DNA of 24,464 nt from an uncultured Bacilli bacterium (GCA_947586295.1 CANPXQ010000001.1:1-24464); one strand, 5' to 3'. Shown: positions 667 to 14,163, counted from the stretch's first letter. Made by a program: numbers and translations. Notes: generated by a model not told the origin, from the sequence alone.

Positions 667-2028
667 ATGACAAATAGTTTAAAAAAATATCAAGGAAAAA
701 GAAACTTTAATAAAACTAAAGAACCTAAAGGTAGTGTTATTAAAAGTTCTAATAAATTACGTTTTTGTATCCAACATCACATAGCTCGAAAAGATCATTA
801 TGATTTTCGTTTAGAATGGAATGGAGCCTTAAAAAGTTGGGCCATCCCTAAAGGTCCATCTTATGATTATACCACTAAAAGACTGGCGATTATGGTAGAA
901 GATCATCCGCTAACATACCGGCATTTTGAAGGGACAATTCCTCAGGGAGAATATGGAGCAGGAACAGTAATGCTATGGGATGAAGGATACTGGATACCTA
1001 CAACAAAAATAAATAATTCTTTTAATATGTCCAATTTTAAATTTATTTTAAAAGGAAAAAGATTAAAAGGCTTATGGACAATGATACATTTAAAGAATAA
1101 TAATTGGCTTTTAATAAAAGAAAAAGATAATGTTAAAGGCTTTAAAAATATAAAGAGAATTAATAAAAGTATAAAAACTAATCGTACAATGAGAGAAATT
1201 ACTAATGAAGAAAATTTTCCTATTTTAACTAATCCTCAGAAAAAAATAACTAATAAATATACTAAAGAAGAAATATTTAATTATTATAAACAAGTGGCTT
1301 TTAGAATGTTACCATATATTGAAAATCGTCTTATTAGTGTAATTAGAGCACCATCAGGAATAAAAGGTGAAATATTTTTTAAAAAACATTTAGAAAATAA
1401 AAATCCGGGTATTAAAAAAATAAATTTACCAAGTGATAAGACTTTAACCGATTATTATTATATAACAAATATTTATGGTTTATTAAGTGAAGTACAAATG
1501 AATAGTTTTGAATTTCATCCCTGGGGTAGCAAAGTAAACGATTTAGAACAAGCTGATATTTTAGTATTTGATTTAGATCCCGATAAATCTCTTCCTATTA
1601 CCAAACTTCGTCAAGGGGTAAAAGATTTAAAAAGTATTTTAGATAGTTTAAACTTAAAATCCTATCTTAAAACAAGTGGTGGTAAAGGCTATCATATTCT
1701 TGTTCCTCTTAAAGTTAAAATGTCTTGGCAACAAGCCCGAAATACAGCCCAAAATATTGCTTTATTAATGGAAGAAAAATGGCCCCAAAAATATACCAGT
1801 AACATTCGTAAAAATAAACGTCATAAAAAAATATTTATTGACTGGATTCGAAATACCAAAAGTTCCACATCAGTTGCCCCCTATTCCATACGTTTAAGAA
1901 AAAATTTGCCTGTTTCTATGCCTATTAAATGGAGTGAGTTAGATAAAATAAAACCCAATGAAATAACAATGGAAGAAGCTATAAAAAGATTAAAAAGAGT
2001 TGATCCTTGGAAAGATTTTTTTGCTTAA
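667..2028 (+). CDS. LigD-derived 3'-phosphoesterase (PE) + primase-polymerase (PolDom) fusion with no ligase domain
   Basis: PE motifs QHHIARKDHYDFRLE, SWAIPKGPS, VEDHPLTY, YGAGTVMLWD (aa ~30-180). AEP motifs VFDLDPD, KTSGGKGYH, IFIDWIRN (aa ~187-453). No KxDG ligase motif and no room for a ligase domain. Confidence 0.92.
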   Translation: MTNSLKKYQGKRNFNKTKEPKGSVIKSSNKLRFCIQHHIARKDHYDFRLEWNGALKSWAIPKGPSYDYTTKRLAIMVEDHPLTYRHFEGTIPQGEYGAGTVMLWDEGYWIPTTKINNSFNMSNFKFILKGKRLKGLWTMIHLKNNNWLLIKEKDNVKGFKNIKRINKSIKTNRTMREITNEENFPILTNPQKKITNKYTKEEIFNYYKQVAFRMLPYIENRLISVIRAPSGIKGEIFFKKHLENKNPGIKKINLPSDKTLTDYYYITNIYGLLSEVQMNSFEFHPWGSKVNDLEQADILVFDLDPDKSLPITKLRQGVKDLKSILDSLNLKSYLKTSGGKGYHILVPLKVKMSWQQARNTAQNIALLMEEKWPQKYTSNIRKNKRHKKIFIDWIRNTKSSTSVAPYSIRLRKNLPVSMPIKWSELDKIKPNEITMEEAIKRLKRVDPWKDFFA

Positions 2029-11718: not shown

Positions 11719-12450
11719 TTATTTTTCTATCAAATCACTACTATACCAATAATATTTTCCGTTTTCCATTTTAAAAGTATGTTTATATTTTACCAATTTA
11801 TCTGGTTTCGTAATCTTTTCATTTTCATATTTTACATTATTATTTTTCATAGTCATTCGCTCATCATTAAAACATTCTTGAGTCTCTTTATTACATTTGC
11901 CAAAATAATCATAAATAACTAATTCTTTATTACTATTTATTTCAAAACCATCAAGGCTATGATATACATAATATTCTTCTTTTTCAATATTATCATTATA
12001 AATAGATATTATTTCAGTATCTTCATTATAGATAGCTTTTAATTTATTATCTATTCTAAAATCTAAATAATAAATATTTACATTATTGCCAAATATCGTA
12101 TGAATGGCATCATTAAAGTCATTTATAGGTATTTGTGCTACTTCTTCTTCAAGATGATCATTATTAATAACTATTTTATTATTATCTTTTAAATAATTAT
12201 AAGCCGTAATTAATATATGTTCATAGCTTAAATTATTATATTTAGTAAAGTATCCATTATAGAATCCATACTTTTCGGCATATTTATTTACATATAAATT
12301 TTGATATATATTATTTACTTCACTTTCAGAAATATTTTCTTTCTTTTCCCTATTTCCTTCAAAATTAAATAGCTTAAAGAAAATAAAAATAATTAAAATT
12401 ACCGTAACAGCTACAATTAAAATCATTACCGTTTTTTCTTTCTTTGGCAT
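11719..12450 (-). CDS. Hypothetical protein with N-terminal membrane anchor (start ATG 12450 or GTG 12459)
   Basis: Long ORF, N-terminal hydrophobic helix, SD AGGTGA; candidate promoter TTGTCT(12496-12491)-N17-TACTAT(12473-12468). Confidence 0.75.
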   Translation of the reverse strand: MPKKEKTVMILIVAVTVILIIFIFFKLFNFEGNREKKENISESEVNNIYQNLYVNKYAEKYGFYNGYFTKYNNLSYEHILITAYNYLKDNNKIVINNDHLEEEVAQIPINDFNDAIHTIFGNNVNIYYLDFRIDNKLKAIYNEDTEIISIYNDNIEKEEYYVYHSLDGFEINSNKELVIYDYFGKCNKETQECFNDERMTMKNNNVKYENEKITKPDKLVKYKHTFKMENGKYYWYSSDLIEK

Positions 12451-12483
12451 TACTATCACCTATTTTTATAGTATCAAAAAATA

Positions 12484-12511
12484 ATAAAAAAGACAAGTTA
12501 TTTAACTTGCC
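12484..12511 (-). terminator. Terminator of the 12760-14163 gene, built on the downstream repeat copy
   Basis: Minus strand GGCAAGTTA-AA-TAACTTGTC followed by TTTTT. Confidence 0.75.
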
Positions 12512-12525
12512 ACAATAGGTCGACA
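12500..12525 (+). repeat. 26-bp direct repeat, copy 1 (intergenic)
   Basis: ATTTAACTTGCCACAATAGGTCGACA, identical to 12758-12783. Confidence 0.98.
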
Positions 12526-12758
12526 TGTAGGTTTGTCAAACATATGTGACAGCGTATATGGTTGGCAAACCTACACTGTGCATTTTATCTTCTTTGCATA
12601 GACATTATGCCGAGAAAACACTAAAAGTTAGGCAAGTTATGATATAATTTTTTAATTTGCAGTATTATTTGCTGCCTTTCTGCAAATCAATCATAACTTG
12701 GGTTCCTGACTTTTAGTGGCAAATTGGAATATTGTCACACTTCTATGTAAAATGCACA
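12526..12758. mobile_element. 233-bp non-coding, highly self-complementary insertion (MITE/REPIN-like or structured ncRNA)
   Basis: Hairpin 12526-12575 plus rod 12577-12758, both starting TGT and ending ACA; boundaries coincide with the direct repeats; no meaningful ORF. Confidence 0.6.
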
Positions 12759-12783
12759 TTTAACTTGCCACAATAGGTCGACA
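12758..12783 (+). repeat. 26-bp direct repeat, copy 2 (last codons and stop of the 12760-14163 gene)
   Basis: Identical to 12500-12525; encodes CRPIVAS-stop on the minus strand. Confidence 0.98.
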
Positions 12784-14163
12784 CGTATATCCTTTACTAG
12801 TATAATATGTTCCTATTTCACTATAATTAGTTGGAAAAGCATTATTCCCAGATTCCATATCCAATGTTTCTTTTGGTAAATCAGCTTTTATAGTAATTGT
12901 ATAATTAGCATCATCATAAGTAGCAGTACCGGTAATATTATTATAAGTTAATACACTATCTTTATTTACAGCTACAGTATTATATTCTTCTAAAGTATCA
13001 AATTTAAATGTATATAACCGATATGCATAATTTATATATTGATAACCATTACCACTTTCTTCATTAGCTCCCATAGCAATAAAATCAGTAGTAGTATCAT
13101 TGGTGCAACTTAAATATAATTTTATTGGGGTTTGTAAAACTATCAATTTAGAAGTAACTATACCTTGTTTACCTGAAGCACTAGTTACCGAAATATTAAT
13201 TTCATATTGACCAACCGCAAGAAGATAACTAGATATATTAGTATCAGCTTGAGCAAAAGCATAGGTACATTCTTCTTCGCTACAAGAATCTTCAACAATG
13301 AAATCTTCAGCTTTAAATTCTCGAGTTTCATTTAAACTAGCGAATACTTCTTTGGCTGTTGCTGTAGGGACATTATTGTTAATTATGGTTACATTACCAC
13401 GATGCGTTACTCCATCATTACAAGTAATAGAATATTCATAAGTACCTTCTTTATTAATATTAACATTTGTCGTTATTAAATTACAATTTTTAGAATCTGT
13501 ACCACTTATAGTAGCATAATCATTTATATTAGTAGATAAAGGCGTATTTATTGGTAATTCTAAATTATTTGTCTTAACATCAATGTTCGATTTTTTACCA
13601 CTTGCAGTTTTACCTAAAGATAAATAATAATAAACACCATAAGCAATAGCTCCCAGTAGAACAACAATTAGAATAATAAATAAAACTTTATTCATTGGTT
13701 TTTTCTTATTGCCATTATTAGAATTTTGAGGTACTTCAACTCCCATATTTTCAACTTTTTTGGCTTCAACAAAACCATTACTATTACTATTTACATTGGT
13801 ATTAGCACTATAACTCATTGTTCCGGGTATAGGTTGAGGATAAGGTTCATAATTCATTGACCCATTTTCCAAATTATTATTAGTTGTATTAGTATTAGCA
13901 GTATTCACTGGGTTTTGATTAGCCACATTTGTCTCAGGCGTTATATTAGTTGCTAAAGTTGGATTAACTGGATCATTTAAACTTTCTTCAGCCACAGGCG
14001 TTGGTATAGGGTTAACTCCCCCATTATTCAAAGAAGGGTTTACAGGTTCAGTTTGAACACCAGTATTCACCACAGTTGGTTGTGGGTTTTCAATAGTACC
14101 CAAAGATGTCGAATTTAAGGATTCGACATTAGAATTTTGATTATTTTGATTTTCATTATTCAT
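12760..14163 (-). CDS. Type II membrane surface protein: N/P/T-rich disordered N-terminus, one TM, probable Ig-like extracellular repeats
   Basis: ~155 aa low-complexity N-terminus, TM VLFIILIVVLLGAIAYGVYYYL, beta-rich repeats (GTYEYSITC, GQYEINISVT) with paired cysteines. Confidence 0.7.
   Translation of the reverse strand: MNNENQNNQNSNVESLNSTSLGTIENPQPTVVNTGVQTEPVNPSLNNGGVNPIPTPVAEESLNDPVNPTLATNITPETNVANQNPVNTANTNTTNNNLENGSMNYEPYPQPIPGTMSYSANTNVNSNSNGFVEAKKVENMGVEVPQNSNNGNKKKPMNKVLFIILIVVLLGAIAYGVYYYLSLGKTASGKKSNIDVKTNNLELPINTPLSTNINDYATISGTDSKNCNLITTNVNINKEGTYEYSITCNDGVTHRGNVTIINNNVPTATAKEVFASLNETREFKAEDFIVEDSCSEEECTYAFAQADTNISSYLLAVGQYEINISVTSASGKQGIVTSKLIVLQTPIKLYLSCTNDTTTDFIAMGANEESGNGYQYINYAYRLYTFKFDTLEEYNTVAVNKDSVLTYNNITGTATYDDANYTITIKADLPKETLDMESGNNAFPTNYSEIGTYYTSKGYTCRPIVAS

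Follow-up and report, generated by a model that had tools for sequence, protein, structure and literature searches.

A probable IS481-type MITE with a ~25-bp target duplication at a gene end in an uncultured Bacilli genome

In the window (the whole 24,464-nucleotide stretch of uncultured Bacilli DNA analysed here), a 233-bp insert separates a 467-aa gene from its terminator. It is highly likely that this insert is a MITE, an internally deleted copy of an uncatalogued IS481-type IS of rabbit-gut Bacilli that duplicated ~25 bp of its target on insertion. According to the proposed mechanism, the MITE would have kept both transposase-recognised ends, lost the transposase gene, and been moved by transposase that full-length relatives in the same genome presumably supplied in trans. 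Strand transfers staggered by ~25 bp, followed by gap repair, would have duplicated 25 bp of a target that spanned the last codons, the stop and the terminator 5' arm of the host gene, which would be why both the gene end and the terminator survived. AT-rich stretches between genes would be favoured as sites, and ACTTGC would be weakly and symmetrically preferred 3–8 nt outside each cut. Transposition itself is probably of the copy-out-paste-in type via a circle, as the analogous IS3/IS481 superfamily suggests. A conserved ~185-nt rod module, carried by IS and MITE alike, would have extended the left end in this Bacilli lineage.

The insert at the gene end and its mobility

An exact flanking repeat had been claimed for this locus, and ATTTAACTTGCCACAATAGGTCGACA is indeed found at both 12500-12525 and 12758-12783, with a period of 258 nt (the repeat grows to 30 nt if one mismatch is allowed). 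Since the outer left end reads TGTGC in all relatives, the element itself corresponds to 12526-12758 (233 bp) and the duplication to 25 bp. The duplication proper therefore occupies 12501-12525 and 12759-12783, with the 26th matching A being the terminal base of the element. The features of the locus are as follows.

11719..12459 (-): downstream host gene, 246 aa, no Pfam match
12492..12511 (-): intrinsic terminator-like hairpin and T-run of the 467-aa gene, now 258 nt further from the stop
12501..12525 (no strand): target site duplication, IRR-side copy; supplies the terminator 5' arm (12504-12511); the empty allele has a single copy of the repeat
12526..12551 (+): IRR, transposase-distal end of the parent IS; TGT tip, TTGTCAAAC, GTGACA at positions 20-26
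12526..12575 (no strand): 50-nt hairpin of IRR and its internal inverted copy IRR' (12556-12575), from the inverted-repeat match
12576..12587 (no strand): internal junction, a C and then IRL' (TGTGCATTTTA, the inverted outer left tip)
12603..12734 (+): rod-shaped module (tail core), from covariation, G.U asymmetry and covariance-model matches
12733..12758 (-): IRL, the parent IS's outer end on the transposase-proximal side, reading TGTGCATTTTACATAGAAGTGTGACA in - orientation
12759..12783 (no strand): target site duplication, IRL-side copy; contains the final 7 codons of the 467-aa gene, its TAA stop (12762-12760) and 1 nt more
12760..14163 (-): host gene, 467 aa, ending ...CRPIVAS-TAA within the 12758-12783 copy

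The genes at the locus all lie on the - strand. The terminator arms read GGCAAGTT-AAAT-AACTTGTC from 12511 to 12492 (-), followed by the T-run, and this was the sole terminator-like site found in the region. The original prediction had assigned one repeat copy to the gene end with its stop and the other to the terminator 5' arm; both were located. It had also held that gene end and terminator were left intact by the insertion, which is supported. The 467-aa protein is rich in Asn and Pro at its N-terminus; a single hydrophobic helix lies around residue 170, and the C-terminal domain spans ~280 aa. A Pfam scan of this protein gave no match; a role as surface protein is plausible. An outward promoter-like site is seen at 12539..12512 (-), combining the TTGACA of IRR, a 16-nt spacer and a TATTGT within the duplicated target, and faces the restored terminator and the downstream 246-aa gene.

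As had been claimed, the insert has TGT...ACA termini and no ORF, and it is non-coding. The accompanying statement that it lacks a long terminal inverted repeat is only partly right: the two ends share the TGT tip and a GTGACA block (positions 20-26), with 17/29 positions identical; as a sequence pattern, this is a typical bipartite IS end. As ssDNA, the insert forms a pair of neighbouring hairpins, one a rod of 182 nt and the other 50 nt long (-44.9 kcal/mol, z = -6.6 for the fold).

The window genome is represented by an 879-kb assembly of 120 contigs (26% G+C, coding ~91%). A second complete copy of the element, 100% identical, was found on contig C3, and six more contigs have element ends at their edges; in all, this genome has ~6 identical copies of the MITE. 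The own-genome repeats differ in sequence at each locus, with lengths of 25 bp (C1, the contig of the window), 25 bp (C3), 24 bp (C9/C100) and 25 bp (C8/C90). To find the empty allele, Logan contigs of four gut-metagenome runs were compared with the locus. Two runs yielded contigs (1207 and 1810 nt) that omit exactly 258 nt, with flanks 99–100% identical, a joint ambiguity of 26 nt and one repeat copy retained. Word depth was ~98 in the element interior versus 13–16 in the flanks, in agreement with roughly 6–7 copies. The runs containing DNA of this locus are mainly rabbit-gut and other gut metagenomes, and include one RNA run. A circle junction was not seen among the assembled contigs, in which rare forms drop out.

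Hence, the insert has the attributes of a MITE, one that is mobile and was active recently: it is short and ORF-free, its ends and tail match those of full-length ISs, it is multicopy with a separate duplication at each copy (24–26 bp, compared to 25–27 bp for the parent ISs), and empty sites exist. A non-autonomous mobile element had been proposed, together with searches for further copies bearing their own flanking duplications, for an empty allele and for a transposase sharing the ends. All three were positive: the copies in the same genome, the empty allele in two gut-metagenome runs, and the transposase in the form of a full-length IS with a 310-aa ORF. That the flanking repeat arose by chance is contradicted by 19 independent insertions, each with its own 24–27 bp repeat, and by the natural single-copy empty alleles.

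The same genome (G000) also harbours a second family, with ends 83–92% identical to those of the MITE. These ends lie at the edges of at least seven contigs on the IRR side (C21, C59, C62, C63, C77, C101, C105) and at least four on the IRL side (C2, C33, C44, C55), and pair up through repeats of 25, 26 and 25 bp. The 77-nt end of this family still codes for a transposase C-terminus, RDYF(N)KLK-stop. An rve-type transposase gene was not found in the assembly of the window genome, whose shortest contig is 2.5 kb. The coding remnant nevertheless indicates that full-length or near full-length copies are present, with their interiors lost below the 2.5-kb contig cut-off; the second family is probably a full-length IS of the same family. 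Within this strain, the MITE is presumably mobilised in trans. The second IS breaks the assembly at a minimum of 11 contig ends and, together with the MITE, accounts for a visible share of MAG fragmentation. The MITE and its larger sibling interrupt the assembly of these ~1-Mb gut genomes at many places.

The parent IS and its composite left end

The parent IS, found full-length in genome G035, is 1079–1237 bp long, has the same ends as the MITE and carries a 310-aa ORF. Its end motif is present in 14/36 other species sampled in the genus and in 0/24 other genera. Pfam matches on the 310-aa ORF are rve, rve_3 and HTH_29. The NCBIfam model IS481 (NF033577) is the best match by a wide margin, covering nearly the whole profile (E 8e-62) with 209.3 bits, slightly below the curated cut-off of 224 bits. 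The IS21, IS3 and ISNCY_2 models score far below IS481 (53 bits for ISNCY_2), and at E <= 0.01 no IS30 model appears among the NCBIfam matches. Actinobacterial IS481 transposases (24–26% identity) align with the ORF at the DDE triad and at the KPYTPKHNGKVER block around the catalytic E. IS481 elements are ~1–1.3 kb long, and the TGT...ACA termini, imperfect terminal inverted repeats and length of the parent IS fit this family. The original prediction had been unable to assign a type; the shared ends and the NCBIfam and Pfam profiles now point to a deletion derivative of an IS481-type IS. The likeness to the IS481 family comprises a single ~310-aa ORF, an N-terminal HTH, an rve-type DDE core with conserved KPYTPKHNGKVER motif, TGT...ACA termini and a length of ~1.1–1.2 kb. 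In contrast, the duplications are 24–27 bp here, and the left end bears a rod module and an internal inverted junction.

Relatives 66–100% identical are common in 'uncultured Bacilli/Tenericutes' gut MAGs (rabbit, goat, mouse, human), and relatives 45–56% identical occur in Saccharibacteria and Clostridia. A search of a large protein collection gave 7851 matches at E <= 1e-20. The best 120 clusters of these are almost all unnamed and mostly located on 1.0–1.5 kb contigs, as expected for a collapsed repeat; judged from these clusters, the transposase clade is abundant and essentially unnamed in public data. A 56%-identical relative on a Faecousia MAG contig (L075, 1632 nt) has ordinary inverted ends (TGTAGGT...) and lies directly after a long GCAAG...CTTGC palindrome, which matches the Bacilli half-site motif described below. 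Janibacter terrae (L110-L116, L127) contains seven copies of a canonical IS481-type element of ~1181 bp, located within or adjoining a palindromic repeat, GCATTCCCCTAGGGGAATGC, similar to the ends of the element itself. No simple target duplication was visible at these seven copies, which served as a method control.

It is improbable that the element belongs to the IS1202 family, in the subgroup with 27–28 bp duplications, rather than to IS481 proper. S. pneumoniae IS1202 and its relatives do share very long duplications of nearly the same length class, and IS1202 ends also combine a TGT tip with a second conserved block near position 20 (bioRxiv 10.1101/2022.12.17.520857). Furthermore, the IS1202 transposase is an IS481/IS3-related DDE enzyme (bioRxiv 10.1101/2022.12.17.520857), and one published tree places the IS1202 group inside IS481 (PMC10045372). 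However, IS1202-family transposases are 400–500 aa long and the elements 1320–1990 bp (bioRxiv 10.1101/2022.12.17.520857), compared to 310 aa and 1.08–1.24 kb here. The subgroup with 27–28 bp duplications is described as having a ~30-aa insertion just before the catalytic domain (bioRxiv 10.1101/2022.12.17.520857), which was not seen in a comparison with actinobacterial IS481 transposases. The profile scores likewise favour IS481 (209 versus 53 bits for ISNCY_2, a model that may not represent IS1202). The duplication lengths (24–27 bp, mode 25 bp) overlap ISfinder's 24–29 bp for the subgroup but not its 27–28 bp mode.

In transposase orientation, the long form of the IS reads IRL, tail, IRL', a single G, IRR', ribosome-binding site, tnp and IRR. 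IRL begins with TGTGC and has GTGACA at positions 20-26. The rod-shaped tail (186–201 nt) ends in IRL', the inverted first 11 nt of the element, and IRR' is a perfect inverted copy of its last 17 nt. The resulting GCACAG-TGTA(A/G)G is found in 19/19 IS or MITE copies examined. IRL and IRL' covary between copies (TGTGCAG/CTGCACA, ...CAA/TTG..., ...CGA/TCG..., ...CAT/ATG..., ...CGT/ACG...), and 19/47 predicted pairs of the tail stay paired through changes on both sides. In full-length ISs, ~50 nt separate IRR' from the tnp start codon downstream of it, and IRR follows the tnp stop. The window MITE corresponds to the long form minus tnp, with IRR (identical or near-identical to the ends of full-length ISs) and IRR' left as the 50-nt hairpin, which marks the site of the parent transposase gene deletion. 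On the + strand, IRR'-C-IRL' is arranged like an abutted-ends (circle-type) junction.

The 57 free IRR-type ends are without exception true right ends, indicating that no extant copy uses the internal junction as an end and that the mobile unit is the composite. Solo core ISs (IRR'...IRR, no tail) were sought among the 57 free IRR ends and 19 internal copies, and none was found. A natural short form (L064 2903-3985, L065 2903-3981; 1079–1082 bp) has its tail reduced to a 46-nt hairpin of IRL, loop and IRL', with the 1-nt junction kept, and is flanked by 25–26 bp duplications. Hence, the stagger does not depend on the rod core. At L145 (G073:C6, ~1469-1660 (-)), a tail that has both the outer IRL and the inner IRL' is followed by unrelated DNA and not by an IS core. 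No duplication flanks this tail, which may be a solo tail or a recombination remnant.

IRR contains a perfect TTGACA 8 nt from its tip. The outer IRL has TA(T/A)AAT 8 nt from the tip in most full-length variants, while L064 has TAAGAT and the window MITE TTACAT. Tips abutted with 1 nt between them, as in the internal junction, would give a 17-nt spacer. The predicted TTGACA-17 nt-TA(T/A)AAT arrangement is the classic circle-junction promoter design, and in this respect resembles the circle-junction promoters of IS3, IS30 and IS110.

Duplication length and target choice

Boundaries were set without assumptions, by seeking the DNA just beyond the right end again upstream of the element. A duplication was found at 19/24 mapped insertions, with lengths of 24 bp (one site), 25 bp (13), 26 bp (four) and 27 bp (one), the mode being 25 bp. 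These 19 sites consist of twelve full-length ISs in other MAGs (25–27 bp) and seven own-genome sites. The other five insertions, all full-length copies, show no duplication of any length; some copies of IS1202 relatives also occur without a duplication, for which recombination between copies has been invoked (bioRxiv 10.1101/2022.12.17.520857). A 45%-identical Saccharibacteria element, which has ordinary terminal inverted repeats and no tail, is flanked by a 25-bp duplication with one mismatch.

The 24–27 bp seen at 19/19 duplicated sites is outside the ISfinder range for IS481, in which duplications are 2–15 bp, mostly 6 and some ~15 bp (PMC10045372). Within the IS1202 group, classes of 5–6, 15–17 and 24–29 bp are known, and the eukaryotic IS481EU elements produce ~4, ~15 and rarely ~25 bp (PMC10045372). 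Discrete classes of ~5, 15 and 25 bp recur across IS481, IS1202 and IS481EU (PMC10045372; bioRxiv 10.1101/2022.12.17.520857), spaced one helical turn apart (PMC10045372). The parabasalid IS481EU elements resemble the present ones in their IS481-like transposase, TGT...ACA termini, non-autonomous derivatives and ~25 bp class (PMC10045372). They differ in that 24–25 bp duplications are rare (single copies) and stand beside 4 and 15 bp within one family (PMC10045372), whereas all duplications found here are 24–27 bp and the host is bacterial. A literature search, ISfinder records aside, found no report of a prokaryotic IS481-type element with ~25 bp. Long duplications being a known discrete class of the IS481/IS1202 superfamily, the analogies to IS1630, IS1634, Cas1 and att-core recombination that had been drawn for this locus are superfluous.

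AT-richness is common to all 19 mapped sites, whose duplications are 79% A+T, and the inspected sites are intergenic or at gene ends. A position profile was computed from 107 unique flanks (80 after clustering of near-duplicates), and displays a signal at fixed positions 29-33 from each IS end. T31 is present in 56/80 flanks (p = 3e-7, Bonferroni 7e-5), G32 in 23/80 (p = 6e-7) and C29 in 21/80, while TTG occurs at positions 30-32 in 18/80 flanks compared to 1.3 expected. As the signal is seen on both sides independently, the data support a symmetric consensus GCAAGT-N2-[25 bp]-N2-ACTTGC, with a weak ACTTGC motif located 3–8 nt outside the duplication on both sides. A sequence preference at this distance outside each cut implies that the complex contacts ~40 bp of target. 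In its extended versions (CTTGACAA), the motif is similar to the TTGACAA present in the ends of the element itself; by inference from this likeness, the end-binding domain of additional subunits might also hold the target.

Targeting of terminators, as the original prediction had it, would imply that the transposase recognises the hairpin structure. Such structure-directed targeting of terminator-like repeats has reportedly been seen for IS1630, and in three insertions (C1, C3, L057) a terminator is cut, one duplication boundary falling just before its 3' arm; L062 and C62/C55 lie just after a terminator. In these three cases, though, the CTTG(C/T) of the 3' arm equals the half-site, a motif that is also found at non-hairpin sites, and most sites are without a hairpin. 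The folding energy of empty sites did not differ from that of 1500 random intergenic windows of the genome (p = 0.31; own-genome sites p = 0.60), and empty sites no more structured than random windows leave hairpin targeting unsupported; the sequence motif fits instead. In addition, intergenic survival bias in a ~91% coding genome would alone enrich terminator regions. We thus consider recognition of hairpins unlikely. IS1630 of Mycoplasma fermentans, an IS30-family element, makes ~19–26 bp duplications near terminator-like repeats in a small AT-rich genome of the wall-less type. It differs from the present element in transposase family, and in the hairpin preference, which is unsupported here.

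Three further readings would remove the IS481-type MITE altogether or give its rod another task, and each is very improbable. Were the long exact repeat the core of an att-like recombination of a circle, or the product of Cas1-type integration, its sequence would not be expected to differ at every copy of an identical element; moreover, an empty allele with one repeat copy exists and the associated gene encodes a DDE transposase and no recombinase, making this the most remote of the three. The strongly structured nature of the insert (z = -6.6) would suit a resident ncRNA, a local tandem duplication, or a 50-nt hairpin acting as REP/REPIN moved by a RAYT. Multiple copies with different flanks and the empty allele speak strongly against the first two, while REP/REPIN was rejected on finding that the hairpin arms are IRR and IRR' of a DDE IS, flanking tnp in full-length copies. 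The ncRNA reading is contradicted for the whole insert, and the rod core may yet be an RNA. There is similarly scant probability that the rod is a guide RNA that, like a bridge RNA, picks its targets through base pairing. The transposase-proximal end does bear a structured non-coding module, and at the window locus 9 nt are complementary to the flanking repeat, yet this match was reached by 50/500 shuffles and is absent in other copies, i.e. at chance level. Identical MITE copies also occupy unrelated targets, and short-form ISs without a rod still give 25–26 bp duplications.

The kind of element described here, an IS481-type MITE and its parent IS, is known. Relative to the literature found, what is new is the uniform ~25-bp class in a small prokaryotic IS481-type enzyme, the symmetric target motif outside the duplication, and the composite left end with its RNA-like rod. 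The clade provides a clean natural dataset on how IS481/IS1202-type transposases make discrete ~5, 15 and 25 bp duplications. With a small 310-aa enzyme, a uniform 25-bp stagger and a symmetric sequence preference, it lends itself readily to structural and biochemical tests.

The rod module as a candidate RNA

The rod consists of a closing stem P1, a conserved internal loop, the covarying stems P2 and P3, and a conserved 4-nt bulge. Its invariant 15-mer is present in 27/56 genomes of the genus, often without any IS end. A covariance model found the rod in 29/56 genomes of the genus (1–6 copies each), in 1/13 genomes of other genera of the family and in 0/137 other genomes of the class; the rod family is thus confined to the genus and one sister genus. 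Free-standing rods are 130–160 nt long (L131 1500-1636 (-), L134 1357-1516, L139 1374-1516, L148 1368-1531 (-), L155 1500-1661 (-), L160 1382-1516 and others). They have a closing stem UUAU.CC / GG.AUAA, a conserved internal loop and a 12–14 bp stem with abundant compensatory changes (12/18 modelled pairs), beyond which come the conserved 4-nt bulge, another stem and a tip that varies. When the insert and eight free-standing rod loci were scanned against Rfam, chance-level matches and tRNAs were all that was returned.

RNA folding is better on the strand antisense to the transposase in 36/36 distinct copies (mean difference 8.9 kcal/mol, Wilcoxon p = 2e-7), and G.U pairs number 143 on the antisense strand versus 44 on the other. 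Such asymmetry is the signature expected of selection on RNA, or ssDNA, of the antisense strand. The favoured strand in the window is +, antisense both to the parent transposase and to the flanking host genes. Searches in both orientations gave no consistent promoter at a fixed distance ahead of the rod, and most copies have a poor -10 region at the internal junction. Antisense RNAs of the IS10 RNA-OUT type offer a parallel, in that a structured RNA-like module occupies the transposase-proximal end, with signs of being read antisense to tnp; the rod differs from RNA-OUT by also existing without any IS.

The rod may represent a new RNA family, a candidate linked to a DDE transposon. We can tentatively go further and suggest, while regarding this as doubtful on balance, that the IS481-type lineage carries a functional RNA of ~130–160 nt (the rod), antisense to tnp and beside an inverted abutted-ends junction, and that the same RNA, present or absent between genomes and multicopy, is free in about half of the species of the genus. 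It could then be either a mobile RNA gene captured by an IS, or a new RNA restricted to this lineage, with a regulatory or assisting role for a DDE transposase. No earlier prokaryotic IS481-type group would then combine, as this clade does, a uniform 25-bp stagger with a symmetric motif outside the duplication.

Free rods tend to adjoin the 3' end of a co-oriented gene, between convergent genes. One is located inside a tRNA cluster, on the tRNA strand, at a site occupied in three species (L193 (G018:C13), L194, L195) and empty in a fourth (L196, G015:C6 8330-8924). The occupied alleles display a degenerate ~20-nt direct repeat, AAATATTT..TTATTTATT, which overlaps the first bases of the rod. 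Systematic flanking repeats were sought around free rods, and the tRNA-cluster site is the only one to show one. These ~1-Mb genomes are rich in small repeats: the region L134 900-2000 (G011:C1) is pieced together from four or more other families of short repeats, all of them multicopy in the genus, with segments at query positions 240-453, 692-789, 783-894 and 985-1035.
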